64,000 nt of DNA from Nanobdellota archaeon (lineage in GTDB: Archaea > Nanobdellota > Nanobdellia > Pacearchaeales > GW2011-AR1), in contig DAOWGX010000018.1 in assembly GCA_030641715.1 (NCBI GenBank), positions 35,752-99,751 on the forward strand, given 5' to 3'. This document shows, in pieces, positions 4,037 through 45,606 of the stretch. Both the position numbers and the translations under genes were made by a program. The notes below the pieces were generated by a model. It was not told the DNA's origin. It saw only the letters and a program-made list of their open reading frames with translations, and did no database searches. Position 1 is the stretch's first letter. Each line of letters opens with the position of its first letter.

Positions 4037-6829
4037 ATGGCAAAAGAATTTAGCGAAGAAGAAATTTTGAAATTTTGGGAAGAGAACAAAATTTATGAAA
4101 AGTCCAAAAAGAAAAATATAAATGGAAAAAAATTCTATATGATGGATGGGCCTCCGTATGCTACGGGACACATTCATATGGGGACGGCTCTAAATAAAAT
4201 TTCTAAGGATATTGTTATGCGGGCGCAAAGACTTCAAGGAAAAAATGTATTTGATAGGTGTGGGTATGATACCCATGGGGTTCCGATTGAGTTTAAGGTA
4301 GAAAAAGAGATTGGGGCGAGAACTAAGCAAGATATTGAAAAATTCGGAGTGAAAAAATTCGTAGGAAAATGCAAGGAATATGCGACAAAATTCATAGGAA
4401 TAATGGGTCCGGAATTTAGGAATCTTGGAGTTTGGATGGACTTCGATAATCCTTATCTTACATTGGATACAAAATATGTAGAAACAATTTGGGATACTTT
4501 CAAAATTGCCGACGAGAAAAACCTTCTTTATTTGGGAAAGTATCCCGTACACAATTGTCCTCGTTGTGCGACTGCAGTTTCTTTTAATGAAATCGAATAT
4601 GCAAAACAAAAAGATACCTCTGTCTTTGTGAAATTTCCCCTGAAAGGTAAAAAAAATACTTATTTGATTATCTGGACTACAACTCCTTGGACTCTTCCGG
4701 GAAATACAGGGGTTATGGTAAATCCCAAAGTAGATTATCAACAAATAGAATTGTCTTCCGGAGAAAATTGGATTATTGCCAAGGAACTTGTATCTGAAAT
4801 TATGGCTAAACTAGAAATGGGTTTCACACCGAAAGAAGAATTCAAGGGAACTGAAATGGTCGGATGGACTTATGAAAATCCTTTATCAAAACATTTGAAG
4901 TTGAAGTTAAAGGATGCGTATCGGGTTGTTCCTTCGGCAAGATATGTAACAGTTGAGGAGGGAACGGGTCTTGTACATTGTGCACCAGGTCATGGGAAAG
5001 AAGATTATGATGTGGGAAAAGAGTTTGGTCTTGATGCACCTTGTCCTGTGGATATTAATGGATTGCTAACTGAGGAAACGGGGAAGTACGCTGGTAAAAA
5101 GGCGAGGATTGTGGACGCAGAAATCATTGGAGATTTGGAAGCAGATAATTTTCTCGTCTATAAATTCTCCTATACTCATGATTATCCGTTTTGCTGGAGA
5201 TGTAAATCTCCTCTCTTGATGATTTCACAACCGCAATGGTTTTTAAGGATTTCAGATATTCAAAAACAGATTCTTAAAGAAAATGAGAAGACTAATTGGA
5301 TTCCGAAATGGATGCAAATTAGAATGAAAGCGTGGTTGGAAGGAATTTCTGATTGGCCAATTTCAAGAAAAAGATATTGGGGAACCCCCTTGCCAATTTG
5401 GGTTTGTGATAAATGTGATGAGAAAAAAGTTGTAGGTTCGTTAAAGGAATTAGAAAAACTTTCTGGACAAAAAATCAAGGAGATTCATAAACCTGAGATT
5501 GATGATGTGGAAATAAAATGTTCTTGCGGAGGAAAAATGTCGAGGGTTAATGAAGTTTTGGATGTTTGGTTTGATTCGGGAGTTTCAAGTTGGGCGGCAT
5601 TAAATTACATGGAGGATAAAACACAATTCAAAAAATTCTGGCCAGCGAATATAAATCTTGAAGGAAAAGACCAGATCCGAGGCTGGTGGAATTCTCAATT
5701 TATTTTATCGCAGATAAAGTTTGATAAGAAACCGTTTGAGAATATCTTAGTCCACGGAATGGTTCTTGATGTGGGGAGGAAAAAAATGTCAAAATCCGAT
5801 GGAAATGTTGTTGCTCCTGCAGACGTTATTGAACAATATAACAGAGACTTTTTAAGATACTACTTTGCAAAAATTTCTAAGGGAGAAGATTTTTCATTCC
5901 AAGAAAGAGAATTTAAAGAGATAAGAAAAACATTCATGATCTTATCGAATATAACAAGATTTGTGGGCCAGCTGAAAGGGTCAAAAAGTAGACAAACTTT
6001 CGAGGATAAATGGATTATGTCAAGATTTAATAGAACCATTGAAGGGGTGATTTTTGCATATAATAGTTTTAATTTTCCGGAAGTTATAAGACTTCTTGAA
6101 GATTTTCTTGTGAATGATTTATCTAGGACTTATATTAAAATAATTAGGGAAAGGGCTGATGAAACAAAGGGATTGCTCGAAGAGATTTTAATCGGGGTTG
6201 TGAAACTTTTTGCACCAATAGCTCCGTTCGCTGTGGAGGAAATTTGGCAGAATCTTTTAGAAAGGAAGAATGTAAGCGAAGAATCTGTTCATCTATCTTT
6301 GCTTCCAAAGAAAGATAAAACGAAAGTAAACGATAAATTAGAAGCGGAATTCGATGAAACTATTAAACTAATTGAGGAAGGTTTGGCAAAAAGGGATAAG
6401 GTACAGATTGGATTGAAATGGCCTCTCGCAAAAGCGACGATTAAATCTCCGACAAAGTTTAACAGAGAATTGGATTTTATTATTAAAAACCAGTTAAATA
6501 TTAAGGAACTAATTTATGAAAAAAATGAAAGTTTTGAGATAATTCTTGATACCAAATTGACGCAGGAATTGGAGTCCGAAGGATTCGCTCGAGAGATTGC
6601 AAGAAAAATTCAAGCGGCGAGGAAAAAAGCAGAGCTGGTAACGACAGATGAGATTGAATTAGAAGTTCTTTCGGAGTTCAACGATAAATTAAGGGCTCAG
6701 TCGGATTTTATAAAAGAAAGGGTTGGAGCAAAGACCTTCTCGTTTAGTAAATCTGGGAAAAAGTTTAATTACTCTGAAGAAGGGAAAATTAAAGGAAAAA
6801 CTTTTCTGATCCAATTTGATAAGGTTTAA
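4037..6829 (+). CDS. ileS: isoleucine--tRNA ligase
   Basis: PPYATGHIHMGT (HIGH), KMSKS, DWPISRKRYWGTPLPIW; class Ia editing synthetase architecture. Confidence 0.9.
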   Translation: MAKEFSEEEILKFWEENKIYEKSKKKNINGKKFYMMDGPPYATGHIHMGTALNKISKDIVMRAQRLQGKNVFDRCGYDTHGVPIEFKVEKEIGARTKQDIEKFGVKKFVGKCKEYATKFIGIMGPEFRNLGVWMDFDNPYLTLDTKYVETIWDTFKIADEKNLLYLGKYPVHNCPRCATAVSFNEIEYAKQKDTSVFVKFPLKGKKNTYLIIWTTTPWTLPGNTGVMVNPKVDYQQIELSSGENWIIAKELVSEIMAKLEMGFTPKEEFKGTEMVGWTYENPLSKHLKLKLKDAYRVVPSARYVTVEEGTGLVHCAPGHGKEDYDVGKEFGLDAPCPVDINGLLTEETGKYAGKKARIVDAEIIGDLEADNFLVYKFSYTHDYPFCWRCKSPLLMISQPQWFLRISDIQKQILKENEKTNWIPKWMQIRMKAWLEGISDWPISRKRYWGTPLPIWVCDKCDEKKVVGSLKELEKLSGQKIKEIHKPEIDDVEIKCSCGGKMSRVNEVLDVWFDSGVSSWAALNYMEDKTQFKKFWPANINLEGKDQIRGWWNSQFILSQIKFDKKPFENILVHGMVLDVGRKKMSKSDGNVVAPADVIEQYNRDFLRYYFAKISKGEDFSFQEREFKEIRKTFMILSNITRFVGQLKGSKSRQTFEDKWIMSRFNRTIEGVIFAYNSFNFPEVIRLLEDFLVNDLSRTYIKIIRERADETKGLLEEILIGVVKLFAPIAPFAVEEIWQNLLERKNVSEESVHLSLLPKKDKTKVNDKLEAEFDETIKLIEEGLAKRDKVQIGLKWPLAKATIKSPTKFNRELDFIIKNQLNIKELIYEKNESFEIILDTKLTQELESEGFAREIARKIQAARKKAELVTTDEIELEVLSEFNDKLRAQSDFIKERVGAKTFSFSKSGKKFNYSEEGKIKGKTFLIQFDKV

Positions 6830-21970: not shown

Positions 21971-21996
21971 ATGGCTCCGTAGCTCAGTCTGGTTAG
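21971..21996 (+). repeat. orphan copy of the tRNA-Lys 5' part (acceptor 5' strand to D-loop)
   Basis: atGGCTCCGTAGCTCAGtCTGGTTAG, 25/26 identical to 22046-22071; no matching 3' half follows. Confidence 0.8.
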
Positions 21997-22047
21997 TCGC
22001 TTCGCTCTCGAGCAAGCTCGAAACCAGCCGTGAGTTCTGTTGCTATA

Positions 22048-22122
22048 TGGCTCCGTAGCTCAGCCTGGTTAGAGCACTGGACTTTTAATCCAGGTGTCGG
22101 GGGTTCAAATCCCCTCGGGGCC
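22048..22122 (+). tRNA. tRNA-Lys (anticodon UUU)
   Basis: hand-folded cloverleaf: 7-bp acceptor, GCTC/GAGC D stem, CTGGA/TCCAG anticodon stem, loop CTTTTAA, GGGGG/CCCCT T stem, GTTCAAATC T loop; no encoded CCA. Confidence 0.93.
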
Positions 22123-31728: not shown

Positions 31729-32001
31729 CTATCTGTAAACTAAATGTTTCTTGTACTTGCCGTTAAAAGGGTTACTTGTGCATCTGTTACATATCCTACT
31801 TACGTCGTATTGGGATTTATCTTGATATGCTAAACACGTTCTTGATTGTTGACCTATTAGGTCTTGTTGTACTCTTACATACTTGAGGGTTTTCGTTTCT
31901 AAGCGTTCTTTCCTCCCATTTCTTCCTGCTCGGGCTATTTGTCCGAAGAGGCTTTTACCTTTATCGCAATAGTGTTTTGCTTTTAAGTTATTGTTTGCCA
32001 T
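31729..32001 (-). CDS. hypothetical basic Cys-containing protein
   Basis: 90-aa ORF; no recognised family. Confidence 0.3.
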   Translation of the reverse strand: MANNNLKAKHYCDKGKSLFGQIARAGRNGRKERLETKTLKYVRVQQDLIGQQSRTCLAYQDKSQYDVSRICNRCTSNPFNGKYKKHLVYR

Positions 32002-32235
32002 TTTTTTGATGGTATCTGTAAGGATTTGAGGTTTATAAGTCTTTCTATTTGTTGTTTCTTAAGCGTAGTAACAAATATAGATTGATAGGCTAGGTTGTAG
32101 TTTAATTAGATTTAAAAGCGAAGGGTTCTAGATTATTTTAGGTTATTTGGGGTGCATCGGATAATGATAGTCTACTCGGCTCCAAAACTTTTTAGAGGTA
32201 CGAATATTTAAATAGTCTATGTTCAAATTGATAAT

Positions 32236-32712
32236 ATGAAATGGACGAATAGGGAAGAGATGGAATTGAAAGAAAAGTATTCTTCTTGTGCTAGTCTTAG
32301 AGAACTTGGGACTTATTTGAATAGAAGTATCCGTTCAATAAAACAAAAAGCTGCAAGACTTGGATTGTCGCGAGGACTAGCGCCGGTCAACAAACCGAAA
32401 AATAAAAGACATAGAAATATTTCAGATAAACAATATTATGAAGATAATAAAAAGAAGATCCAGCATACTAAAACGAAACGGTTGAAAAGGATAAAAATTG
32501 AAATGATAAATCTTCTAGGGGGGAGATGTTCTAAATGTGGATATAATCATTGTTGGGCGGCTTTAGAATTTCATCACAATACTTCTGATAAGGAAGGAAA
32601 TATGGCGCATATAATTAAAAATAAGTCTAGAGAGAAGGCTTTAAAAGAAGGAAAGAAATGCATATTATTATGTGCGAATTGCCATAGGGAATTGCATAAT
32701 CAGGGTTCATAG
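32236..32712 (+). CDS. HNH endonuclease with N-terminal SANT/Myb-like HTH
   Basis: CSKCG..EFHH..CANCHRELH HNH motif; W..EE..L..RS..IKQKAARLGL N-domain; own TATA at 32205-32214. Confidence 0.75.
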   Translation: MKWTNREEMELKEKYSSCASLRELGTYLNRSIRSIKQKAARLGLSRGLAPVNKPKNKRHRNISDKQYYEDNKKKIQHTKTKRLKRIKIEMINLLGGRCSKCGYNHCWAALEFHHNTSDKEGNMAHIIKNKSREKALKEGKKCILLCANCHRELHNQGS

Positions 32713-32773
32713 TTCAAAGGTAGAATATCGGTCTCCAGAACCGAGGATGCGGGTTCGATTCCTGCTGAGCCCA
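32703..32773 (+). tRNA. tRNA-Trp (anticodon CCA)
   Basis: hand-folded cloverleaf: GGGTTCA/TGAGCCC acceptor, TCGGT/ACCGA anticodon stem, loop CTCCAGA, GCGGG/CCTGC T stem, TTCGATT loop; no intron. Confidence 0.9.
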
Positions 32774-32820
32774 TTTTATGTTCCCAATACTTTTATAAAT
32801 AAAGCCCTCTTGGTTTTGAT

Positions 32821-33282
32821 ATGGTAAAAGGGGCGGTAAAGAAGTCGGTTAGTAAGGGTGTTGATGATGAGAGTCTTGAGGGAGTTGTTGTGGGGGGGCG
32901 TGATTCTAAGAAGGTTGAGAAGGAAGGTCCTGTCAAAAAGAAGATGACAGCGAAGGAGCGTGAGGAACTTTTGATTGAAAATTTTGTGGGATTGCAACAT
33001 GCGATGACGAATCTTTCTATTAAATTTGGGGCTTTGTCAGATAATATTACGAAGTTGCTTCAGGTTTTTGAAGAGTCAGCGAAGAGCTTTGTTTCCGGGG
33101 GGAAGATTGAAGACGATTCTATGTTGAAGAAAATCGATTCGTTGTTGGATCAAAATAAAACTATTGCGAAGGGTTTGATTTTAATGGAAGGAAGTTTAAG
33201 GAATCGTTCCGAGGCTGTTGGACAAGCACCCGTTTATTCTGAGATGCCGTATTCAAAACCCAAGCCGTTTCCGAGCACATGA
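32821..33282 (+). CDS. hypothetical coiled-coil protein
   Basis: 153-aa ORF; TATA 32791-32800; ATGA-coupled to the next ORF. Confidence 0.4.
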   Translation: MVKGAVKKSVSKGVDDESLEGVVVGGRDSKKVEKEGPVKKKMTAKEREELLIENFVGLQHAMTNLSIKFGALSDNITKLLQVFEESAKSFVSGGKIEDDSMLKKIDSLLDQNKTIAKGLILMEGSLRNRSEAVGQAPVYSEMPYSKPKPFPST

Positions 33283-34055
33283 GTTCTGAAGATGTTTCTG
33301 TAATTGCGTTGGAGCCTTTTATTAGTAGGTTTGTTTTTACGATAATTCAAAATATTCGATCGCATGATTTTTCTTATGAGGAAAGGCAGGTTGTTCATGC
33401 AGATTTGGTGCCGAAAGTTTCGGAAAAAGTTATGATGTCTTCTTTGAAGGAGAAAGAACTTCCGCTTATGAGAAGGGAGATGGATGAGTTGGTGATTCCT
33501 ATGAATAGATCTATTATGGAAACATCTGTCAAGATTCCTGTTAGAAAGCCGAGGTCTGTTATTAATAAACCTGTTATGGAACGGCTTGTTAGAGCTCCGG
33601 TTAGAAAGCCGATGCCCGTTCTTTTGCCCCCTCCGCAACCTAAAAGGGTGCAAATGTCTTCGCCATCTGTAGTGCCTCCACAAATACAATCTGTATCTCC
33701 AAAGGTTATGACTCCGAGTGTTTCTGTAAGTGTGGAATCTGATCAAGATTATGGGAGGATTACTCCGCTGTTGGGTGATCCTGTTATTTCTTTGATTGAG
33801 TGTCAGGGTGCGGGGAAACCTTTAATGATTATTCGAGCAGGTCAGAGGCAGATTACACGGATTACCTTGAGTCCTATGGAGATCAAAGAGGTTTTGGAGA
33901 AGATCTCTGAGGGGGCGCATATCCCGTTGCTGGAAGGTGTTTTTCGGGCGGCTGTTGGTAATTTTTCTATTAATGCGATTATTTCTGAGATGGTTGGGTC
34001 GAGGTTTGTGATTCGAAAGCAGACTCCGTATTCGTTGCTTGAGAGACAGGTTTAA
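33279..34055 (+). CDS. Pro-rich protein ending in a FlaI/VirB11-type ATPase N-terminal-like domain (no ATPase core)
   Basis: C-terminal ..LLGDPVISLIECQG..PLMIIRAG..ITL..EIKEVLEKIS....SRFVIRK resembles the N-domain of secretion ATPases; the ORF stops before any Walker A. Confidence 0.45.
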   Translation: MSSEDVSVIALEPFISRFVFTIIQNIRSHDFSYEERQVVHADLVPKVSEKVMMSSLKEKELPLMRREMDELVIPMNRSIMETSVKIPVRKPRSVINKPVMERLVRAPVRKPMPVLLPPPQPKRVQMSSPSVVPPQIQSVSPKVMTPSVSVSVESDQDYGRITPLLGDPVISLIECQGAGKPLMIIRAGQRQITRITLSPMEIKEVLEKISEGAHIPLLEGVFRAAVGNFSINAIISEMVGSRFVIRKQTPYSLLERQV

Positions 34056-34082
34056 ATAACTTTTAGGTTTTGTTTTGGTATG
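34003..34082 (+). repeat. 80-nt unit T, copy 1 (3' end of ORF 33279-34055 + TATA + ATG)
   Basis: 75/80 identical to copy 2; contains TATA gtttaaataa (34050-34059) centred 25.5 nt upstream of ATG 34080. Confidence 0.9.
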
Positions 34083-34652
34083 CAAAAGCATACTACACTT
34101 TTTGATGATTTAAAAAAAGCGTATGACCCAAGTAGGACATTGGGGAGATTAGATATCCATAGTTATAGCTCGAATGATTATGGTAATATATCGAATGATG
34201 CAAGAGAGTTAATTATTAATGCAGATGATAATGTAACTCTATTTATTAATAGTCCTCTTTCTAAATTCCTGATATTCAATTCTGATAAAGTAATAAGGGC
34301 TGTTTCTGAAGTTTCAGATTTGGTAAAGGTTAGGATTTTATTGAAACGAAGCAGAGGTTCTGAAGAAGTTAATGATTTAATAGAGAGGCTTCATTATACT
34401 GGTTATCGAAAAGGGAATGATAAAATAGAGATTTTAGATAAGGAGGTAATTGAAGACCAACGTCTTCGGGATGATTACTTTATTGTAGCTGATAGACGAA
34501 ATGTTTTTTGGAAAAAATCTATTCATAAAGTTTCGCAGTTTATTTATGATGTTCCTTGGATTGGGGAGAACCTAGAATCCCAGGTTAGGCTCTTGGAAGC
34601 TAAACATAAGGACAATATAAGGTATAAAGATATACCTGGCATAGGTTTGTAA
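34080..34652 (+). CDS. 190-aa cassette protein, paralog A (unknown function)
   Basis: ORF; roughly 65% aa identity to paralog B by eye; AT-rich; promoter, ATG and stop all lie in T copies. Confidence 0.6.
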   Translation: MQKHTTLFDDLKKAYDPSRTLGRLDIHSYSSNDYGNISNDARELIINADDNVTLFINSPLSKFLIFNSDKVIRAVSEVSDLVKVRILLKRSRGSEEVNDLIERLHYTGYRKGNDKIEILDKEVIEDQRLRDDYFIVADRRNVFWKKSIHKVSQFIYDVPWIGENLESQVRLLEAKHKDNIRYKDIPGIGL

Positions 34653-34723
34653 TTCGTAAACAGACTCCGTATTCTTTGCTTGAGAGACAGGTTTAAATAA
34701 CTTTTAGGTTTTGTTTTGATATG
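34644..34723 (+). repeat. 80-nt unit T, copy 2
   Basis: hand alignment, 75/80 to copy 1 and 74/80 to copy 3. Confidence 0.9.
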
Positions 34724-35293
34724 CAAAAGTGTACTACATTTTTTGATTATCTAAAAAAAACGTGTGACCCAAAGATTGCATATGGGAGATTAGATACACA
34801 TAGTTATCGCCCTAATGATTACGGCAATATATCGAATGAGGCAAGGGAGTTAATCATTAGTGCAGAGGAGAATGTAACTCTGTTTATCAGTGACCCCCTT
34901 CCTAGGTTTTTGATATATGATTCTGATAAAGTCATAAGGGCTATTTCTGAAGTTTCAGATTTTGTGAATGTTAAGATTCTATTAAAAAGAAGCGAGGATT
35001 CCAAAGAAGTAGATGATTTAATAAAGAGGCTCAATGACGCTGGTTACCAGAATAAGAATGGTCAAATAGGGGTTTTAGATAAGAGTGCAATTGGAAATGA
35101 TCGTCTCAGAGAAGATTACTTTATTGTAACTGATAGCCGAAATGTTTTTTGGAAAAAATCTATTTATGATATTGCGGAATTTATTTATGATGTGCCTTTG
35201 CTTGGGGAGAAACTGGAATCCCAAGTTGGGCTCTTGGAAGCTAAATATAAGGACAATGTAGGGTATAAAAATATATCTGGTATGAGTTTGTAA
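34721..35293 (+). CDS. 190-aa cassette protein, paralog B
   Basis: tandem paralog of 34080-34652. Confidence 0.6.
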   Translation: MQKCTTFFDYLKKTCDPKIAYGRLDTHSYRPNDYGNISNEARELIISAEENVTLFISDPLPRFLIYDSDKVIRAISEVSDFVNVKILLKRSEDSKEVDDLIKRLNDAGYQNKNGQIGVLDKSAIGNDRLREDYFIVTDSRNVFWKKSIYDIAEFIYDVPLLGEKLESQVGLLEAKYKDNVGYKNISGMSL

Positions 35294-35364
35294 TTCGTAA
35301 ACAGACTCCATATTCTTTGCTTGAGGGGCAGGTTTAAATAACTTTTAGGTTTGGTTTTGGTATG
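35285..35364 (+). repeat. 80-nt unit T, copy 3 (supplies promoter and ATG of the DUF357 gene)
   Basis: 74/80 identical to copy 2. Confidence 0.9.
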
Positions 35365-35643
35365 AAGAATGAGATTAGTGCTGAGAAGTTAAGGAAGTAT
35401 TTTGATTTGACTGAGGAGGCGTTTGTCGAGGTGAAGAAGAATATTTTTGAGGGAAAGGAAGTTGAGGCGAAGGAGATTATTGAGATGGTTGGGAATTATG
35501 TTTCGGATGCGCATCATTTTGAGGCGAAGGGTGATTGGGTTAATGCTTTTGCGGCGTTGAATTATGCGCATGGTTGGTTGGATTGTGGGGTGAAGACGAG
35601 GGTTTTTGATGTTGGGGATGATAGGTTGTTTACTGTTTGTTGA
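35362..35643 (+). CDS. DUF357-family archaeal protein
   Basis: ..HHFEAKGDWVNAFAALNYAHGWLDCG.. matches the remembered DUF357 pattern. Confidence 0.6.
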   Translation: MKNEISAEKLRKYFDLTEEAFVEVKKNIFEGKEVEAKEIIEMVGNYVSDAHHFEAKGDWVNAFAALNYAHGWLDCGVKTRVFDVGDDRLFTVC

Positions 35644-35844
35644 TTCGATAGATATATAAATTGAGAGTGCTTTTTTAATTTATGGCGATAAGAAAGGAAG
35701 GTCCTGGGAAATGAATTTTGATAATACCGGTATAGCCTTATAAGGTTCCAAAATCTATATGAATCAAAATTACTTATTTGGTCTATGAATTTAAATAAAG
35801 ATGGTCCAGCTATTTGAGAAACCTATAGTAGGTTTTTGAAAATG

Positions 35845-35874
35845 GATTCAATAAATATATAAAGCTAAATTACT
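35845..35874 (+). repeat. orphan copy of the pyrH promoter region
   Basis: gattcaataaatatataaagctaaattact, 28/30 identical to 36414-36443. Confidence 0.8.
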
Positions 35875-35883
35875 TGTTTAATT

Positions 35884-36078
35884 TTAAAGAAGATTATTGC
35901 CTAGTTCGGATAGTTTTGCGGTCGGATACATCTTATCAAAATTAAAGCCATGTTCAATCAATCCAATAAGTGTAAATCTGTCTAGAACAGTTTTATCTGA
36001 TTCTTCAATTCTTTTTCTTGTTTTATACTTTGTTAAAACTTCTGTTTCGTATTTTTCAAAAATGGGTCTTTGCTTCAT
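35884..36078 (-). CDS. hypothetical 64-aa protein (cassette gene 2)
   Basis: ORF overlapping the upstream 92-aa ORF by 4 nt. Confidence 0.4.
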   Translation of the reverse strand: MKQRPIFEKYETEVLTKYKTRKRIEESDKTVLDRFTLIGLIEHGFNFDKMYPTAKLSELGNNLL

Positions 36079-36353
36079 ATTATTATTTCCTGTTTTAAAA
36101 TATACAATTGTTTTAATTTTATATCCAGTTCTCTCACGTACTCTCCATATAAGGAACTTTTCAAATTTTTTATCTTATCCGCATATTGTATTCTTATTTC
36201 ATCATAAGGTCTATTAAATTTTTTTTGGAGAACATTTTTTATTTCATCATTTAATACTCTACTCATATTTGCTTTACTCTCTTTAAATTCATGAATCGTT
36301 TCGTCTATTTCTGATTCGCGGGTAAGTAATTGTCTTAGGTCTTTTTTGCTCAT
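36075..36353 (-). CDS. hypothetical 92-aa protein (cassette gene 1)
   Basis: ORF; two-gene minus-strand unit bracketed by the 30-nt repeats. Confidence 0.4.
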   Translation of the reverse strand: MSKKDLRQLLTRESEIDETIHEFKESKANMSRVLNDEIKNVLQKKFNRPYDEIRIQYADKIKNLKSSLYGEYVRELDIKLKQLYILKQEIII

Positions 36354-36413
36354 TTGTTTTTAAGAACATCTTTGCTTATATGTTTTTCTAAGGGCTAATT
36401 TGGGAGGGTTATT

Positions 36414-36443
36414 GATTCAATAAATATATAAATCTAAATTGCT
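36414..36443 (+). promoter_or_regulatory. pyrH promoter (functional copy of the 30-nt repeat)
   Basis: TATA atatataaat (36424-36433) centred 25.5 nt upstream of ATG 36454. Confidence 0.6.
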
Positions 36444-36453
36444 CATTCAGTAT

Positions 36454-37137
36454 ATGGAAAAAGTTTGGGTGATTTCACTTGGTGGTTCGAGGATTGTTCC
36501 CGACGAGGTTGATGAGAAATTCCTCTTGAGATTTAAAAAGCTGATTGATTCGCATCCTTCTCATAAGTTTGTTGGTGTTACTGGGGGTGGTTCTACTGCT
36601 CGGAGGTATATTTCAGCGTTGAGGAAGCTGGGGAAGACGACGAAGTCGCAGTCTGTTTCGGGGATTGCGATTACGAGGCTTCATGCAGAATTTATGGCGA
36701 AGTTTTTTGGGAAGAGTGCGAATGAGGTTATTCCGAAGAGTATGAAGGATGTTAAGAATTTGCTTGGTAAGAACCAGATTGTTTTTTGCGGGGCTTTGAG
36801 GTATAGGGAGGGGAATACTTCGGATGGGACTTCTGCGAAAATTTCGGCTTATCTTGGGTGCCCTTTTGTGAATCTTACGAATGTGAAGGGGTTGTATACT
36901 TCTGATCCTGGGAAGGATAAGGGTGCGAAGTTTATTAAGGAGATAACGTGGAAGGATTTTGAGGAGATAACGAGGAAGATGAAATTTAAGGCGGGGCAGC
37001 ATTTTGTTCTCGATCAGTCTGCGGCGAAGGTGATTTTGAGGGAGAAGATTCCGACTTATATTGTTGGCTCTTTGGCGGCGATTGATAAGATTTTGAAGGG
37101 GAAGAAGGATTTCGGGGGGACGTTGATTTCGGGATGA
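36454..37137 (+). CDS. pyrH: UMP kinase (archaeal type)
   Basis: VISLGGS..VTGGGSTAR.. amino-acid-kinase fold typical of archaeal PyrH. Confidence 0.85.
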   Translation: MEKVWVISLGGSRIVPDEVDEKFLLRFKKLIDSHPSHKFVGVTGGGSTARRYISALRKLGKTTKSQSVSGIAITRLHAEFMAKFFGKSANEVIPKSMKDVKNLLGKNQIVFCGALRYREGNTSDGTSAKISAYLGCPFVNLTNVKGLYTSDPGKDKGAKFIKEITWKDFEEITRKMKFKAGQHFVLDQSAAKVILREKIPTYIVGSLAAIDKILKGKKDFGGTLISG

Positions 37138-37192
37138 AAGGTGATTTTATTTAAAACAGAACATTTATATATAAGTTTATATAGGAGTATAT

Positions 37193-37462
37193 ATGAGATT
37201 ATCTAATTTGAAAATAATTCATTATCCAAATTTGAAGACTATTTTAGCGATTGAAAAAGTTCTGAAGGATGCAGAGTTGGTGATTAGTCGGGAAGAAATT
37301 AAGAGACGGCTTCCGATGAAAATAATGCACCAGACTTTGAATTTGATACTTGATTATTTCGAAGAAAGAAATATGATTGTCGACGGGCATAAAGGGATTT
37401 TATGGATAAAAAACGATAGTCCTAAGTTAAGGGAAGCGATTAGAAAGGGGACTGAAATTTAA
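37193..37462 (+). CDS. putative antitoxin / small DNA-binding protein
   Basis: 89-aa ORF overlapping (TAATG) the downstream RelE/ParE-like gene. Confidence 0.4.
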   Translation: MRLSNLKIIHYPNLKTILAIEKVLKDAELVISREEIKRRLPMKIMHQTLNLILDYFEERNMIVDGHKGILWIKNDSPKLREAIRKGTEI

Positions 37463-37827
37463 TGAATAAAGAAGTAGAAATAATTTTGTCGGAAGAGGTG
37501 AGTAAGCAGTATGAAGAATTGAATAGGATTGTCGGCGAGGAAATAGAGAAAGGGGTTGAGTCTTCTTTTCACCAATCTCTTTTGAGGGCGATAAATCGAA
37601 TTAAGGAACTGTTAAGACAAAATCCTTTTTTGGGAAATCAGGTACATAAAAGATTGATTCCGAGAGAATACTTAAATAAGTATGGGGTGGATAATTTATG
37701 GAGAGTTGAGTTGCCGAATCGGTGGAGGCTATTGTATAGTGTGTATGGTGGGAAGCTAAAGATAACTAATTTCGTGTTGGATTTTTTTGACCACAAGAAA
37801 TATAATAAGCTATTCAAATATAATTAA
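37462..37827 (+). CDS. RelE/ParE-superfamily toxin-like protein
   Basis: ..NLWRVELPNRWRLLYSV..ILDFFDHKKY resembles the RelE/ParE core. Confidence 0.55.
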   Translation: MNKEVEIILSEEVSKQYEELNRIVGEEIEKGVESSFHQSLLRAINRIKELLRQNPFLGNQVHKRLIPREYLNKYGVDNLWRVELPNRWRLLYSVYGGKLKITNFVLDFFDHKKYNKLFKYN

Positions 37828-40812: not shown

Positions 40813-41243
40813 CAAGATTAACTATTAGGAAGGTTGGGAAAAAGAAAGAGAAGGTTTTGGAGAAAATTGTAAAAATGAAAGTTAAAATTGAAAGTATAAA
40901 TAAGGGTCCTTTTAGAAGTAAGTTTACTTTTGGAAAGAGTTGGGAGGTTGTCGATGCTATTGATAATATCTTGGAAAAAGTAGGGCTTCTTGATACTCAG
41001 AGTCATGGATTAAGGGATGAAATAATATATGGTTGTGAACCTGGACCTCAGATAGAGATTAGTAAGTTTGTTGATGAAGTTTATAATCTAGGAATGTATG
41101 ATTTAGAGAATGGAGTTTATTTTATCGATGTCTTTTTAGGGAGAAAAAAAATAATTTTAATTGTAAGGACAAAGGAAGATAAACAAAAGGAAATTTCTGA
41201 AGCTGTGTTTGAATTTGCGGATTTTGAGGGAGAGTTAATGTGA
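40809..41243 (+). CDS. hypothetical protein
   Basis: 144-aa ORF; its stop TGA lies inside the first pheT-start remnant (aatGTGAcaatact). Confidence 0.4.
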   Translation: MTRLTIRKVGKKKEKVLEKIVKMKVKIESINKGPFRSKFTFGKSWEVVDAIDNILEKVGLLDTQSHGLRDEIIYGCEPGPQIEISKFVDEVYNLGMYDLENGVYFIDVFLGRKKIILIVRTKEDKQKEISEAVFEFADFEGELM

Positions 41244-41295
41244 CAATACTAACATTAAATAAAAAAGAATTGGAAAAGAAAGTTGGAAAGATTAC
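41240..41295 (+). repeat. remnant copy 1 of the pheT 5' end
   Basis: 49/55 nt identical to 42445-42499; start codon changed ATG to GTG; would encode VTILTLNKKELEKKVGKIT.. Confidence 0.9.
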
Positions 41296-41349
41296 TACAT
41301 TTAAGTTGCTAGATGATTTTTACCTTTATGAAATCATGAAAGGAGGTAG

Positions 41350-41359
41350 GTTTAAATAT
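41350..41359 (+). promoter_or_regulatory. TATA box of the RelE-type TA operon
   Basis: gtttaaatat centred 25.5 nt upstream of ATG 41380. Confidence 0.5.
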
Positions 41360-41379
41360 CTTTAAGACATTGATAAAAA

Positions 41380-41577
41380 ATGGAACAAGTAACTCTCGAG
41401 AGTGTTAATAGGAATGTTATAGCTTTGCGTGAAGCTGTCGAAAAAATGAGAGAGGTTTTGTTGGAGGATAGTTTGGAGCTTAGTGATGAAGTGGTCGAGG
41501 AGATTGAGAGGTCGCGAAGTGCACCTAAAAGTGATTTTATTTCTCAGGAAGATGTTGAGGCTGAATTTCTTAAATGA
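41380..41577 (+). CDS. putative antitoxin
   Basis: 65-aa acidic ORF overlapping the RelE-like gene by 4 nt. Confidence 0.5.
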   Translation: MEQVTLESVNRNVIALREAVEKMREVLLEDSLELSDEVVEEIERSRSAPKSDFISQEDVEAEFLK

Positions 41578-41828
41578 TGATTAGAATTGTTTGGTATAAG
41601 GAAGCACTTGATTTTTTAAAAAAGTTAGATAATAATATTTCTGAAAGGATTGTGAAAAAGATAAAGGATGTAAGATTAAATCTTGAGAGATATGTTTTTT
41701 CTCTGGTGGATATGGGTGTATCAAAAATTAGGGTCGGAGATTATAGGCTTTTTGTAAATTATTATCAAGAGAATGAGGAGCTTGTTATTCATTCAATTAA
41801 ACATAGGAAAAACGCTTATAAAAAATGA
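41574..41828 (+). CDS. RelE/ParE-family toxin
   Basis: ..IRVGDYRLFVNY..VIHSIKHRKNAY typical RelE/ParE C-terminus; stop TGA lies in pheT-start remnant 2. Confidence 0.7.
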   Translation: MMIRIVWYKEALDFLKKLDNNISERIVKKIKDVRLNLERYVFSLVDMGVSKIRVGDYRLFVNYYQENEELVIHSIKHRKNAYKK

Positions 41829-41856
41829 CGATACTTGCTGTTGATAAAAAAGAATT
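41825..41856 (+). repeat. remnant copy 2 of the pheT 5' end
   Basis: ATGACGATACTTGCTGTTGATAAAAAAGAATT, 27/31 identical to 42444-42474. Confidence 0.8.
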
Positions 41857-41880
41857 AAATTTGATGAAGCCTTGGAGGGA

Positions 41881-42447
41881 ATGATGGAAATTGAAGCTGT
41901 ATTATTTGATATTGGGGGGGTTTTGTTGGAGGATCCTAGGCTTGGGGATTTTTGGAAAGGGAGTGATGAATCCAGGATCTTAAGGGAAAGATTTGGGACA
42001 GGTAAGATTTCTGAAGAAGATTTTGTTAAGGAAGGTTCTAAAATTTTGGATGTTTCTCCAGAAGAATTTAGGGAGGGTTATGAGGATGCTTATTCTGTTG
42101 GGGCTATTGAGGATTCCTTAAGAGTTTATGATTCTGTGAATGTGCCGAGGTATATATTTTCTGATACAAATCCTATTCATGCTAAGTATATCTGGGAAAG
42201 ATTTAAACCTATGTTTGAGAAATCAAAAGGAATTTATTTTTCTTATGAGATTGGCATTCGGAAGAGTGATCCCGAGAGTTTTAAGATTGCTCTTAAGGGG
42301 ATGGATGTGCCTGCAGGGTCGGTGCTCTTTATTGATAATAAATTGGCTTTATTGGATGTTGCGAAGTCTGTTGGGATGAAGGCGTTGCTATATCGAAATT
42401 CGGAACAGTTGAGGATGGATTTAGAAGAAAGGGGGTTGATTAAATGA
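41881..42447 (+). CDS. HAD-superfamily hydrolase
   Basis: motif I AVLFDIGGVLL; ..LFIDNK.. motif-IV-like; ATGA overlap with pheT. Confidence 0.7.
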   Translation: MMEIEAVLFDIGGVLLEDPRLGDFWKGSDESRILRERFGTGKISEEDFVKEGSKILDVSPEEFREGYEDAYSVGAIEDSLRVYDSVNVPRYIFSDTNPIHAKYIWERFKPMFEKSKGIYFSYEIGIRKSDPESFKIALKGMDVPAGSVLFIDNKLALLDVAKSVGMKALLYRNSEQLRMDLEERGLIK

Positions 42448-44153
42448 CAATACTTACTGTTAATAGAAAAGAATTGGAAAAGAAAGTTGGGAAGATTACG
42501 GAGGGGATGGAAGATAAGATTACTGAAATGGGGACGCCGATTGAAGAAGTTACCGAGGACGAATTGTCGGTTGAGGTTTTTCCGAACAGGCCGGATTTGT
42601 TGTCGCTTGGAAATTTTGCTAGAGCTGTTAATCAGTTTAATGGCAAGGGAAAGATTGCGAATTTTAAAGTCAATAAGCCGGAGAAGGATTATGTTGTTAC
42701 GATTGATAGTTCTGTGAAGGTTGTTAGACCTCATACTGTTTGTGCGATTGTAAAGGGTTTGAAGTTTACCGACGAGAAGATTAAGGAGATAGTTGATATT
42801 CAGGAGAAGTTGCATAATTCTATTGGGAGGAAGAGGAAAAAGTTGGCGATTGGGATTTACCCTCTTGACAAGATTGCGTTGCCGATTCGGTTCGTGGCGA
42901 AAAAACCGGAGGAGATAAAATTTTTGCCGTTGGAAGCTAGTCGGGAGATGACTGGAATGCAGATTCTTCGAGGGCATCCGGCAGGGAGGGAGTATGCACA
43001 TTTGCTCGAGAGTGAGAACGTTTTTCCGATTTTTGTCGATGCTGAGGATAAGGTTTTGAGTATGCCACCAATTATTAATTCTCATGAGACTGGAAGGATT
43101 GACGAAAAGACGCGTGAGATTTTTATTGAGTGTTCGGGGCATAATTTGGCTTATTTGAAAAAGTGTTTGAATATTATTCTTGCTACGATTTATGAGATGG
43201 GTGGCAAGATTTATGAGATGAATATTAGGGATTCGAGAGATGGGAATTTTGTTTCTCCGAATATGACTTGTGAGGAATTGAGTTTTGAAATTAAAAATAT
43301 CGAGAGGACACTAGGTATAAAACTGGGTGAGAAGGATGTTAGGAGTTATTTGGGTCGGATGGGTATTGGTTATGAAAATCGGGCACGTAATAGTGTACCT
43401 TCTAAATTAGGAAATAGATTTCCATCTTCATCGGGCAAGGGGAAGTCGGTTGCATTGATCCCTGCTTATCGGGCAGACATTTTGCATTGGATTGATTTGA
43501 CGGAGGAGATTGCGATTGCTTATGGTTACGAAAATTTTGAACCTGAGATTCCAGATATTTCGACGATTGCGTTTGAAGATTCTGTCGGGAAGACGAAGCG
43601 GATTATTGGAGAAATTCTTGCAGGGCTTGGGTTTTTAGAGACGTCGTCATTTCATTTGACGACGAAGAAAGATGTCAGGAAGATGCATTTTGATTATAAT
43701 GATTTTATTGAAGTCGAGGATTCGAAGACGGGGCGGGATGTTCTTCGGATGGATATGTTGACGAATCTTTTGCAGATTTTGTCGGAGAATTCAGATGCAG
43801 GGTATCCTCAGAAGATTTTTGAAATGGGTCAGGTTTTTTCGAGAAGTGGTTCGGAAAATTCAGGGACTGGTGTCGATGAGATTGAGAGGTTGGCTGTTGT
43901 GTTGATTAATGAGAAGGCGAATTTTACTGAATTGAAACAGGCTGTTGATTATTTGTTTAAGATGCTTGGGAAAGAGTATGCTCTTGAGAATGTTGAGAAT
44001 TCAAATTATATTATTGGACGGTGCGGGAAGGTTGTTGTCTACGGGAAGAGTGTTGGATTTATCGGTGAAGTTGCTCCGAGAGTTTTGAAGAATTGGAAAA
44101 TTAAAATGCCGACGGTTGCGATGGAAATTGATTTGGGGTTTTTGTTTCAATAA
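42444..44153 (+). CDS. pheT: phenylalanine--tRNA ligase beta subunit
   Basis: archaeal PheT B3_4/B5 architecture (FPNRPDLLS, RPHTVCAIV, PPIINSHETG). Confidence 0.93.
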   Translation: MTILTVNRKELEKKVGKITEGMEDKITEMGTPIEEVTEDELSVEVFPNRPDLLSLGNFARAVNQFNGKGKIANFKVNKPEKDYVVTIDSSVKVVRPHTVCAIVKGLKFTDEKIKEIVDIQEKLHNSIGRKRKKLAIGIYPLDKIALPIRFVAKKPEEIKFLPLEASREMTGMQILRGHPAGREYAHLLESENVFPIFVDAEDKVLSMPPIINSHETGRIDEKTREIFIECSGHNLAYLKKCLNIILATIYEMGGKIYEMNIRDSRDGNFVSPNMTCEELSFEIKNIERTLGIKLGEKDVRSYLGRMGIGYENRARNSVPSKLGNRFPSSSGKGKSVALIPAYRADILHWIDLTEEIAIAYGYENFEPEIPDISTIAFEDSVGKTKRIIGEILAGLGFLETSSFHLTTKKDVRKMHFDYNDFIEVEDSKTGRDVLRMDMLTNLLQILSENSDAGYPQKIFEMGQVFSRSGSENSGTGVDEIERLAVVLINEKANFTELKQAVDYLFKMLGKEYALENVENSNYIIGRCGKVVVYGKSVGFIGEVAPRVLKNWKIKMPTVAMEIDLGFLFQ

Positions 44154-45341: not shown

Positions 45342-45414
45342 GCCTGATTAGCTCAGTTGGTAGAGCGTCGCATTGGTAATGCGGAGGTCGTGGGTTCAAT
45401 CCCCATGTCAGGCT
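45342..45414 (+). tRNA. tRNA-Thr (anticodon GGU)
   Basis: hand-folded cloverleaf: GCCTGAT/GTCAGGC acceptor, GCTC/GAGC D stem, loop TTGGTAA, GTGGG/CCCAT T stem, TTCAATC loop. Confidence 0.92.
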
Positions 45415-45512
45415 TTATAGAACACACGACAGTTGTGGGCGAAAGATTTGCTTTGAACAAAAATGATCTAAATTTTGTATATTTTATTTTTGAGAGATGC
45501 AAACTGTGAGTA

Positions 45513-45527
45513 AATCCCCATGTCAGG
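45513..45527 (+). repeat. second copy of the tRNA-Thr 3' 15 nt (att-like)
   Basis: aatccccatgtcagg identical to 45398-45412, 115 nt downstream. Confidence 0.6.
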
Positions 45528-45606
45528 ATTGATCGAACCCAGGGTTCTACTTGTGTTTAGGTCTGTAAGTATTTTAGAATTTGTTCAGACCTAAATAATA
45601 TCTTCC

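Follow-up and report, generated by a model that had tools for sequence, protein, structure and literature searches.

A tandem array of foreign PLD-like genes between copies of a native gene junction in a Nanobdellota archaeon, a possible scar of gene capture and local amplification

We detected a head-to-tail array of two 641-bp units, each with one 190-aa gene (A or B), at the junction of the native genes ORF258 and DUF357 in a 64,000-nt stretch of a Nanobdellota archaeon genome (contig DAOWGX010000018.1, positions 35,752 to 99,751; hereafter the window). The array has the form T-A-T-B-T, where T is a direct repeat that supplies the promoter, the start codon and the stop codon to each 190-aa ORF, as the initial annotation of this DNA had proposed. 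Our preferred reading, for and against which the evidence is about evenly balanced, is a gene-capture scar with local amplification, in which one insertion would have duplicated the junction and T-T recombination would have followed. The features of the locus are:

ORF258, 33279..34055, plus strand: native conserved DPANN gene, 217 homologues.
T1, 34003..34087, plus strand: left junction copy, with the ORF258 3' end, the spacer, the TATA box (34051-34060) and ATGCAAAA.
Palindrome GTATGC-AAAA-GCATAC, 34078..34093, plus strand: perfect, exactly across the join of T1 and body A, stem 34076-34095.
Gene A, 34080..34652, plus strand: 190 aa, predicted PLD-like fold without HKD, codons 1-3 (MQK) from T and stop TAA from T2.
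T2, 34644..34728, plus strand: middle junction copy, TATA box 34692-34701.
Gene B, 34721..35293, plus strand: 190 aa, paralogue of A, stop TAA from T3.
T3, 35285..35369, plus strand: right junction copy, TATA box 35333-35342.
DUF357, 35362..35643, plus strand: native gene (Pfam PF04010, E 5e-21; synteny).

The repeat search and self-blastn of the window detected the T copies at 34004-34087, 34645-34728 and 35286-35369, all direct, with copies 2 and 3 showing 94% and 88% identity to the first. Alignment of the outgroups extends T to the 85 nt listed above, with 5, 8 and 11 pairwise differences per 85 nt. Pattern and repeat searches found no copy of T in the window beyond this locus, and a 63-nt T pattern (up to 3 mismatches) never matched in 100 shuffled versions of the window. 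The head-to-tail arrangement described earlier was confirmed with a spacing of exactly 641 nt both times, so that the 642 of the proposed 641-642 period drops out and the body of 569 nt becomes 556 nt between T copies of 85 nt. The ORF258 end, the TATA box and the ATG were recognized correctly as parts of T, but its length is 85 rather than 80 nt and the first 8 nt of DUF357 have to be added.

T consists of the last 53 nt of ORF258 (..RFVIRKQTPYSLLERQV*), a 24-nt spacer with the TATA box at -29, and the 8 nt ATGCAAAA; the TATA box contains the TAA (34053-34055) at which ORF258 stops. Because DUF357 of relatives begins ATGCAAAA(T/C), T reaches 8 nt into this gene, and on this alignment ATGCAAAA in T is identified as the first 8 nt of the ancestral DUF357. 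Since T includes these 8 nt, the 'MQK' start of both 190-aa ORFs would be a remnant of DUF357 'MQN'. Each ORF starts at the ATG within the T upstream of it and stops at a TAA (34650-34652 and 35291-35293) in the 'GGT TTG TAA' of the next T, which is read one frame off the ORF258 frame. The promoter octamer TTTAAATA is found at -29..-22 before each ATG (beginning at 34051, 34692 and 35333), and at least 13 of the 46 gene starts in the window have a like octamer beginning exactly at -29, the genome consensus position; each T is predicted in silico to bear a promoter with the TATA box at this position. T1 now completes ORF258 and drives gene A. T3 restores the promoter and the start of DUF357. 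DNA folds of T1-T3 and the complement gave no hairpin (z -0.06 to +0.93), no Rfam family matched T, and no inverted repeats were found in 32000-37500.

ORF258, whose C-terminal domain has a weak match to the N-domain of the archaeal GspE-type secretion ATPase 2OAP (E 0.026), is directly followed by DUF357 (tblastn offset 8-58 nt) in 50 of the 60 related loci carrying both genes, e.g. L001, L003, L036 and L047, with longer gaps at 10 of the 60; all relatives compared are at least 40% diverged. The 2 x 641 bp are therefore an insertion. By comparison with these loci T is identified as native ORF258/DUF357 junction DNA, and the insert bodies are compositionally foreign (A3 0.26-0.29 and G3 0.18-0.19, vs A3 0.03-0.17 and G3 0.36-0.53 in the native neighbours). 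The 190-aa ORF is the only content of each unit, and a scan of ~30 window proteins, among them every neighbour between 30 and 44 kb, detected no recombinase or integrase. The 10 other loci with insertions at the ORF258/DUF357 junction have no T repeats, and insertions in other lineages (ORF258/DUF357 and DUF357/AA-kinase) have no long junction repeats beyond chance.

The DNA of A and B differs at 112 of 573 nt without indels (77 transitions, 35 transversions), i.e., 80.5% identity, close to the 80% noted initially, and the proteins are 66% identical. The dN/dS ratio is 0.47 (synonymous vs non-synonymous changes, Fisher p 0.001), and the ORF stays open in only 1.3% of random derivatives with 112 substitutions. 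The 190-aa gene is real, and both copies are under purifying selection. The two units share one exact period and identical novel joins: both left joins read ATGCAAAA followed by G, and on the right the two units enter T at one and the same position (..AGG/TTTGT in A, ..GAG/TTTGT in B). A and B are each other's best matches, closest in protein and in dN, and the unit was, we infer, duplicated after the joins had formed. At the T1-A join, the 'GCAT' filler of the palindrome is the reverse complement of 'ATGC' in T, and copy B is mutated to GTGT at this site; the 6-bp palindrome with its templated-looking filler is a possible repair signature (chance ~0.002, noticed post hoc).

For the preferred reading we propose three steps. 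A foreign gene for a small PLD-like protein without the catalytic motif would have inserted 8 nt into DUF357 of the DPANN host, probably a member of the Pacearchaeota/Nanoarchaeota group, duplicating 85 bp of the ORF258/DUF357 junction, most likely by break repair or replication template switching and not by a dedicated recombinase. Where spacers are 24 nt long, this duplication is what would allow the insertion to be tolerated: the left T copy would finish ORF258 and lend the leaderless DUF357 promoter and ATG-CAA-AA to the newcomer, and the right T copy would provide the newcomer's stop codon and restore DUF357. Homologous recombination between the two T, by unequal crossing-over or by the formally equivalent loop-out and re-entry, would then have produced T-A-T-B-T with both joins inherited; recombination between T copies had been suggested initially as a source of copy-number variation, and it is retained here as the natural way to change copy number. 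Finally, the two genes diverged under purifying selection, whereas the T copies remained 87-94% alike, probably owing to constraint on promoter and coding function together with either gene conversion or ongoing exchange at T.

Further T-flanked copies of the 190-aa gene were sought in 15 billion proteins, in one representative genome for each of 185,579 species and in 65 syntenic metagenome loci. The exhaustive HMM search detected 8 proteins at E <=0.001 among 1.84 billion representatives, copy B (P0002) included. The other seven are a closer fragment, P0123 (118 aa, E 7.6e-36), which follows tRNA-Val at a distance of 84 nt and has a promoter and an ATG of its own, and six distant proteins (P0124 to P0129) with their own starts and stops, of which P0124 likewise adjoins a tRNA gene; T is absent at the nearest homologue, where promoter and start belong to the gene itself. 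The search of other genomes recommended initially yielded seven relatives and no further T-flanked copy. The contigs of the homologues are short, and their sole recurring neighbour is a large membrane protein (L139 and L140). The word-index search found only the protein itself and its paralogue, the profile word-index search nothing further, and the viral contigs searched contained no member of the family.

The 190-aa protein had no match in Pfam, PADLOC, PHROGs and PDB sequence profiles. Its AlphaFold2 model (pLDDT 83, pTM 0.81) matched Nuc (1byr), NucT, Zucchini and PLD3 in Foldseek at E 1e-5 to 1e-3, and PLD-fold proteins including inactive ones at E 8e-6 to 1e-3 with TM 0.45-0.55, so the PLD/TrmB-C-like pattern guessed at earlier is borne out at the level of fold. 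In the HxK(x)4D motif, only the Asp (D138) is conserved in the family alignment; the His position is D/N/H/Y and the Lys position is Y/T/C. The protein belongs to a tiny family with a predicted PLD-like fold that lacks the HKD catalytic motif. The predicted fold matches the small PLD nucleases Nuc, NucT and Zucchini, with a size close to Nuc, but the HKD of these nucleases is missing; it matches as well the catalytically inactive PLD folds (TrmB and TrmBL2 C-terminal domains, FAM83/BJ-TSA-9). In contrast to TrmB regulators, the protein has no winged helix HTH and no detectable Regulator_TrmB profile, and hhalign against the window's own TrmB gave a probability of 0.2%. Membership in the TrmB family was rejected, with no Pfam match, no HTH domain and a likeness in fold only.

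The same process would have marked neighbouring junctions in the window and in relatives. The corresponding features are:

DUF357/AA-kinase junction copies, within 35637..36457, no strand assigned: four copies at 35637-35685, 35744-35779, 35840-35888 and 36409-36457.
RNase P p30 start relic, 37134-37166, plus strand: followed by an inserted pair of 89 + 121 aa (37193-37827) and the real p30 start at 37829.
pheT array, 41240..42499, plus strand: relic pheT 5' end (41240-41295), antitoxin/ParE pair (41380-41828), chimeric relic of pheT 5' + pheS 3' (41825-41884), HAD gene (41881-42447), real pheT from 42444.

The DUF357/AA-kinase repeats score 38 vs a shuffle maximum of 32, and two compositionally foreign minus-strand genes (35884-36353) lie between copies 3 and 4; the gap in relatives is 35-54 nt. 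The putative p30 relic was identified by eye from an alignment of three short sequences, and this junction duplicate is probably older than the T array; AA-kinase and p30 overlap by ATGA in L001. At the pheT array, the stop TGA of each inserted gene comes from the repeat. The relic pheT 5' end is nearer to the functional pheT of another genome (53/55) than to its own pheT (49/55), and the pheS-pheT relics are conserved between genomes with different cargo (MazG vs HAD; a toxin-antitoxin pair across ORF144). Like junction duplicates flank unrelated cargo in at least four related genomes (L036, L003, L047 and L086), the cargo at scars comprising toxin-antitoxin pairs, HAD, MazG, AAA ATPase and nitroreductase, and the duplicate length varies from ~30 to 130 nt (85 nt at T, ~130 nt in L036). 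The pattern suggests a general, non-site-specific process rather than a dedicated system. Homology-facilitated illegitimate recombination from a donor with another gene order, a candidate that fits the ATGA stops at pheT, was rejected, as it gives no account of the ORF258 3' end copy downstream of the 190-aa gene. Repeats of the tRNA-Thr 3' end in the window and in L047 indicate that classical integration also occurs in the lineage.

The distances within the array bear on how the second unit arose. Over a stretch of 29 positions without obvious constraint, T2 and T3 show a single difference (P 3e-4 vs the synonymous divergence of the bodies), a closeness that needs gene conversion, a hidden function, or a T younger than the bodies. 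A simple recent duplication in situ would make the A-B dS clearly the smallest, and the observed dS does not fit this: it is 0.40 for A-B overall and 0.51 over codons 1-108, 0.43 between A and the L006 homologue and 0.51 between B and the L006 homologue, so that A, B and the outside homologue are equidistant. The T2/T3 closeness and the equidistant dS keep the model of recombination at T alive. T2 equals T3 at T positions 8, 14, 17 and 32 and equals T1 at 42, 44, 69, 81 and 83, and T3 has 5 derived changes vs the outgroups, all in its 3' half. We rejected 'T2 as a crossover chimera' as a proof of recombination, because with three copies each variable site is a singleton. The idea that T2 and T3 came from another functional allele, since the T1-specific changes are all synonymous, was rejected as well; T1 is the coding copy, which explains the synonymous-only change on its branch.

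An unlikely alternative, though the one that survives best, is a mobile mini-cassette, where a 641-bp circle of body plus T would enter the chromosome at a resident T through homologous recombination or an enzyme yet to be named, A and B would be two entries from a diverged pool, and copy number would vary by excision and re-entry. It would account for the T2-T3 conservation far above the neutral expectation, for the equidistant synonymous sites, for pheS-pheT relics kept between genomes while the cargo changes, and for a T2 that is like T3 on the left and like T1 on the right, as a crossover in T predicts, the singleton problem above applying to this last point; the PeSL mini-circles of T4-type phages, formed without a dedicated recombinase, are a precedent (PMC2839356). 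Against it, the two records of the locus, mutually identical, contain no circle, empty site or other copy number. No second T-flanked copy was found in the proteins, species genomes and syntenic metagenome loci searched, a strict 40-nt T pattern had 0 matches in metagenomes, and a 19-nt T core gave mostly chance matches and single copies in relatives across the genome collection. Two MAG208 contigs ending and starting in T, considered as a repeat-induced break, proved to be a plain overlap with one SNP. The circle does not explain the origin, because the first T-X-T still needs two illegitimate joins. The mobile 641-bp cassette envisaged in the initial annotation was thus not supported, with no hairpin, no integrase among the ~30 window proteins scanned, no other T-flanked copy in the collections searched, and homologues with their own starts. 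Such homologues with their own termini had been named in advance as evidence against the cassette; the single tandem duplication of native DNA named with them does not explain T-X-T, because X is foreign.

Somewhat less probable is the joining of two alleles, i.e., one T-X-T present in two diverging strains, in which X became A or B before unequal recombination at T with imported DNA. The A-B dS is on the scale of between-genome distances (0.39 for DUF357 of the window vs L036), and the relic at pheT, nearer to another genome's pheT, hints at DNA exchange between lineages in this region. However, strains with only A or only B are not known, the ORF258/DUF357 junction is free of inserts in L036, a genome similarly distant, and the near identity of the T2 and T3 5' halves is not explained by this scheme itself.

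A decayed integrative element appears very improbable to us; here a plasmid or virus with an integrase would have used T as its attachment site, and deletions would have left one cargo gene, later duplicated. Direct repeats identical to the target do resemble attL/attR, some islands are known to enter protein genes at the 5' end and to substitute for that end, e.g. the dusA islands (PMC4482086), and both the tRNA-Thr repeats and the tRNA neighbours of P0123 and P0124 fit such an origin. However, the in-frame fusion to DUF357 codon 3 together with a stop in T would need an attP overlapping both gene ends, no integrase or other element genes are left, four adjacent junctions with repeats of differing length (~30-85 nt) and the longer one in L036 would need as many site specificities, and the insertions at ORF258/DUF357 in the 10 other loci lack T repeats.

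An artefact, whether through misassembly or through ORFs that do not represent genes, might be suggested by the metagenomic origin and the tiny family but has a negligible probability. Collapse or expansion is unlikely because the copies differ by 20% and T, with 85 nt, does not reach the length of a read, so that short reads can tell the copies apart. An ENA scaffold of the same sample, which is probably not an independent record, shows no difference from the MAG contig over 6,777 nt spanning the array, and both the selection on coding and the confident fold prediction with consistent structural matches speak for genes.

Under the preferred reading of capture and amplification, the locus is a clean case of a gene added to a genome with almost no intergenic DNA, where the duplicated junction keeps both neighbours intact and gives the newcomer a promoter, a start and a stop. 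As scars of this kind surround unrelated cargo at several junctions and in several genomes, DPANN archaea, in which the dynamics of accessory genes are poorly understood, may generally gain and shuffle genes by this route. A wider and more speculative hypothesis, which we consider rather doubtful, is that accessory genes in this clade of ultra-compact DPANN archaea would routinely be gained by insertions duplicating 30-130 bp of a stop/promoter/start junction between two core genes. Cassettes of one or two genes, separated by junction relics, would in this way accumulate in arrays resembling integrons. Such relics would be retained, in some cases as conserved chimeric mini-ORFs, and would act as substrates on which homologous recombination duplicates, shuffles and possibly circularises the cassettes. 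Of these arrays, T-A-T-B-T would be the youngest and the cleanest, and it would be the equivalent, in a cellular genome and without a recombinase, of integrons and PeSL cassettes. The analysis also defines a small family of PLD-fold proteins without the catalytic motif.

Among known systems, the PeSL (promoter-early stem-loop) cassettes of T4-type phages are single ORFans between conserved genes, bracketed by a repeated promoter module; through recombination between neighbouring modules, genes of 400-1400 bp are gained or lost and can also form circles, with no dedicated recombinase involved (PMC2839356, PMC4122927). The likeness is the repeated promoter module directly upstream of each ORFan. 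PeSL is, however, a dispersed motif family at many loci with a terminator stem-loop, and circles were seen only there, whereas T is a literal copy of one native junction at one locus, has no stem-loop, holds parts of two native coding regions and is found in an archaeon with leaderless promoters. The 'repeat-unit-repeat' amplification by unequal crossing-over between short direct repeats (PMC8831618), like the E. coli amplification and template-switch models (PMC1428787), offers another parallel, as the repeat-unit-repeat model expands to a five-part form with an exact period and identical joins, like T-A-T-B-T. In our array, in contrast, the unit is foreign, the flanking repeat would have been made by the insertion itself, and the copies are old (dS 0.4) and both selected, not a transient amplification.

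A transposon with target-site duplication would have terminal inverted repeats, a transposase and a fixed duplication length, and none of these is seen, the length being 85 bp here and ~30-130 bp elsewhere. Remnants flanked by att sites (CIME-like, dusA islands (PMC4482086), tRNA-end repeats) share with the array the direct repeats of the target and the element-side copy that restores a gene end. T meets the expectation for attL/attR that the repeats equal the target site, but reuse of the attachment site in other genomes was not found (10 loci), an integrase is missing, the repeat length varies by junction and the cargo is fused to the target's first codons. Integron cassettes resemble the array as single-gene units split by a recurring 60-140 nt element, with cargo that is diverse or of no known function. 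The T array differs from them in having no IntI among the window proteins scanned and no attC-type imperfect palindrome; its recurring element is target and not cassette DNA, and each T bears a predicted promoter of its own, whereas integron cassettes are mostly promoterless under a common Pc.

We confirmed the repeat-punctuated array described in the initial annotation: three copies of the repeat T lie at a period of exactly 641 nt, and the TATA octamer, the ATG and the TAA are all found within T. The features are as follows.

34004-34087, 34645-34728 and 35286-35369: direct T copies, the second and third 94% and 88% identical to the first
34003-34087, 34644-34728 and 35285-35369: T1, T2 and T3 as the 85-nt unit, bounds from the alignment with relatives
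34080-34652 and 34721-35293: the 190-codon ORFs A and B, between the T copies
33279-34055, plus strand: ORF258, the gene 5' of the array, from a conserved DPANN family (217 matches)

A 63-nt version of T gave zero matches in shuffled windows. A and B differ at 112 of 573 nt with no indels, and their proteins are 66% identical. Each ORF starts at the ATG within the T on its 5' side and stops at the TAA of 'GGT TTG TAA' in the next T, read in a frame different from that of the upstream gene. The octamer TTTAAATA occupies -29 to -22 of all three ATGs (A, B and DUF357, the gene 3' of the array). The same kind of octamer starts exactly at -29 at no fewer than 13 of the 46 gene starts in the window; thus, this genome appears to use leaderless promoters of fixed geometry, one of which is carried by T. 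These TATA-like octamers imply mostly leaderless transcripts and a very fixed promoter geometry. An assembly artefact is unlikely because the copies are 20% diverged and T is short; over 6.8 kb across the array, the window is identical to an ENA scaffold of the same sample, this scaffold and the MAG contig being probably not independent records.

The closest available relatives (57-61% identity) have ORF258, 24 nt, DUF357, then an amino-acid-kinase (AA-kinase) gene and RNase P p30. A tblastn survey of 65 metagenome loci and further related loci detected 60 with both ORF258 and DUF357, most of them directly adjoining and 10 with longer gaps. The DUF357 start that aligns with T1-T3 is ATGCAAAAT in two relatives and ATGCAAAAC in the related locus L036. 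T opens with the terminal 53 nt of ORF258, including a stop codon that falls within the TATA box, continues through the 24-nt spacer and closes with the initial 8 nt of ancestral DUF357. Gene adjacency and DUF357 starts in the relatives therefore indicate that T is 85 nt of native junction, not cassette DNA, and the 'MQK' start of both 190-aa proteins is evidently a remnant of the DUF357 'MQN'. T has no hairpins, and the region around the array has no inverted repeats.

Two further observations concern this gene pair. The C-terminal domain of ORF258 weakly matches (E 0.026) the N-terminal domain of the archaeal GspE-type secretion ATPase 2OAP up to a common 'GS.F.IRK.T' motif, which would make ORF258 a possible stand-alone N-domain. 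The gene also contains an internal 60-nt tandem repeat (33500-33619, 70% identity). In the related locus L079, a 78-nt element of three CGATGGTAGG-containing units, which looks like a small dispersed repeat, lies in the ORF258|DUF357 gap (4684-4761) and again 1.6 kb downstream (6300-6372, 86% identity).

The bodies A and B are foreign, yet functional under selection. Native plus-strand genes have third-position A of 0.03-0.17 and G of 0.36-0.53, whereas the bodies have 0.26-0.29 and 0.18-0.19. Between 30000 and 45000, the native plus-strand genes have extremely keto-rich third positions (C 0.01-0.07), and all genes between junction repeats there are 'normal' AT-rich, the insertions being flagged by composition alone. 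Between A and B, pS is 0.31 and pN 0.167 (Fisher p 0.001), with dN/dS of 0.47, and the frame stays open in just 1.3% of random A derivatives carrying the same 112 substitutions.

A word-index search of 5.8 billion clusters detected the two copies as the sole matches. An exhaustive HMM search of 1.84 billion representatives detected eight proteins at E up to 0.001: copy B, P0123 (a closer fragment, E 8e-36) and six distant relatives 158-192 aa long. The AlphaFold2 model from the nine-sequence alignment (pLDDT 83, pTM 0.81) matched the PLD fold by Foldseek, including Nuc, NucT, Zucchini, PLD3, the TrmB and TrmBL2 C-domains and FAM83 (E 8e-6 to 1e-3, TM about 0.5); viral PLD-like proteins match likewise. 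The protein had zero matches in Pfam, PADLOC, PHROGs and PDB sequence profiles, and the HxK(x)4D motif is missing from the family alignment, where the Asp alone is conserved. The earlier PLD/TrmB-C guess thus holds for the fold but does not extend to the catalytic PLD or TrmB families.

Homologues elsewhere are ordinary genes, and T is absent from all those examined. P0123 is encoded on a 1.5-kb contig of the same study, 84 nt 3' of a tRNA-Val; the gene has a TATA-like upstream region of its own, starts at its own ATG, which aligns to codon 4 of the window genes, and is shortened by a stop. The distant homologue P0124 shares a variable region with a Dam-type methylase, and a tRNA-like sequence about 130 nt 3' of it was spotted by eye only, without a tRNA finder. 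The self-contained integrating mini-circle proposed initially is unproven and partly contradicted by these T-free ordinary genes. After each of two distant members (L139 158-2467 and L140 366-1620) comes a large multi-pass membrane protein, homologous between both loci (26% identity, E 1e-15), which may form a functional pair with the family member.

The left join, ATGCAAAA|G, is identical in both units, and the right join is at one position, the start of T, in both (A ..AGG|TTTGT, B ..GAG|TTTGT), indicating that the unit was doubled after the joins had formed. T-X-T, with a single body X, would have come first, and later recombination between T copies would have produced T-A-T-B-T. T2 equals T3 at positions 8, 14, 17 and 32 and T1 at positions 42, 44, 69, 81 and 83, the pattern predicted for a crossover inside T, though not proof because with three sequences every variable site is a singleton. 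The four private changes of T1 are all synonymous in ORF258, as expected of the copy still coding. The end of body B (35266-35284, ..CTGGTATGAG) shares the 7-mer TGGTATG with the T 3' end (chance about 0.02; copy A has TGGCATA), which may be a trace of a T-end|T-start join.

T2 and T3 have a single difference in the 29 nt free of obvious constraint (after the stop, before BRE/TATA; P 3e-4 versus the bodies' synonymous divergence), and synonymous distances over codons 1-108 are 0.51 for A-B, 0.43 for A-P0123 and 0.51 for B-P0123. Neither observation fits an in-situ duplication that is simple and old. For comparison, DUF357 has dS 0.39 between the window and L036, and the functional T differs between the two by about 11% (manual count), close to the 6-13% among T1-T3. 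Possibly, gene conversion anchored on the coding T1 has kept the T copies alike; T may also have an unrecognised function, or A and B may have entered separately via T.

The recurrence of the junction scar at other junctions and in relatives changes the picture most. Three more junctions within 8.5 kb downstream carry self-copies around compositionally foreign genes.

35637-35685, 35744-35779, 35840-35888 and 36409-36457: four copies of the DUF357|AA-kinase junction
37134-37166: relic p30 start at AA-kinase|p30, followed by an inserted gene pair (89 and 121 aa) and the actual p30 start, seen by eye without significance test
41240-41295, from 41825 and from 42444: three copies of the pheT 5' end, with an antitoxin/ParE pair and a HAD gene in between

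Two minus-strand genes lie between copies 3 and 4 of the first junction, and the kinase ATGG still ends its first copy; at pheT, the TGA stop of each inserted gene comes from the repeat. In L036, the DUF357|AA-kinase junction (78 nt or more) and the first kinase codons flank a 420-aa ATPase gene on both sides, leaving the relic ORF MKKVWVISLGGSRIVPDEVDERFF... In the related locus L003, the gene after pheS ends with a repeat of the final 41 nt of pheS (..MKFWRK*). A 224-aa gene there has its start repeated 1.3 kb upstream, with a nitroreductase gene in between, and the MTIL of pheT opens a PNPOx-family (PF01243) gene. The AA-kinase 3' end is doubled in L086, and the pheS 3' end in L047 (Nanoarchaeota MAG208). 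The duplications are roughly 30-130 nt long, with unrelated cargo.

A 19-codon chimeric mini-ORF (pheT codons 1-13 and the six final pheS codons) stays open in both the window (41825-41884) and L047 (4197-4256), with 76% nt identity, in genomes whose ORF258 proteins are just about 64% identical. It is joined by ATGA overlaps to the genes on both sides; the adjacent cargo is MazG-like in L047 (named from sequence, not by profile) versus HAD in the window, and a toxin-antitoxin pair lies on the other side of ORF144. The 55-nt pheT relic (41240-41295) matches the functional pheT of L047 (4554-4610) at 53/55 versus 49/55 for its own pheT, hinting at inter-lineage exchange or replacement of the resident 5' end. 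In more distant lineages, insertions are common at ORF258|DUF357 and DUF357|AA-kinase with zero detectable repeats, reflecting either old events or a different process there.

Other repeats were also observed. L003 4818-5004 (also L060 3250-3436), just 5' of the ORF258 homologue, is a tandem duplication of about 86 nt period (the copies align over about 90-100 nt), with ATGA at the bounds of every copy and no cargo gene; it may be a cargo-free counterpart of the junction duplications. The tRNA-Thr 3' end is repeated 115 nt downstream in the window (45398-45426 / 45513-45541) and several times in L047 (7401-7538 and 7440-7793, including one perfect repeat of 79 nt), a pattern resembling classical att-type scars. 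A second copy of the tRNA-Lys 5' end (first 26 nt) lies 76 nt upstream (21971-21996 / 22047-22072, 96% identity), in a sequence not called as tRNA by ARAGORN; this could be a tRNA fragment, a split tRNA or one with an intron.

We favour the view that the array is the youngest case of recurrent junction-duplicating gene capture in this lineage and that T-mediated tandem expansion came afterwards. The primary event would be a non-site-specific insertion that doubled the junction. Captured DNA may have been sealed into a staggered break by fill-in synthesis, or replication may have switched template, copied foreign DNA and returned to a point 85 nt upstream. At overlapping or 24-nt-spaced genes, selection would pass only insertions whose duplication spans the junction, which would explain the uniform look of all surviving cases. 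No recombinase was detected among 30 window proteins scanned. The T1|A join coincides exactly with a perfect palindrome, GTATGC-AAAA-GCATAC (chance about 0.002, noticed post hoc), and its 'GCAT' resembles snap-back-templated filler, which would fit repair synthesis. The doubling and the conservation of T would rest on homologous recombination between T copies, with loop-out of a 641-bp circle necessarily possible as a by-product.

A description of junction-duplicating gene gain in DPANN archaea was not found in the literature searched, which is not proof of novelty. Integrons share the array logic, but attC, IntI and promoterless cassettes are all unmatched here; att-flanked remnants such as dusA islands (PMC4482086) share the target repeats, but not the integrase and the fixed site. 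The expansion step would be ordinary repeat-unit-repeat amplification (PMC8831618, PMC1428787). Closest in logic are the PeSL cassettes of T4-type phages, in which ORFans are flanked by repeated promoter modules, and recombination between modules removes, adds and circularises individual genes with no dedicated recombinase (PMC2839356, PMC4122927). Unlike these modules, T is a literal duplication of its target, with neither stem-loop nor dispersal.
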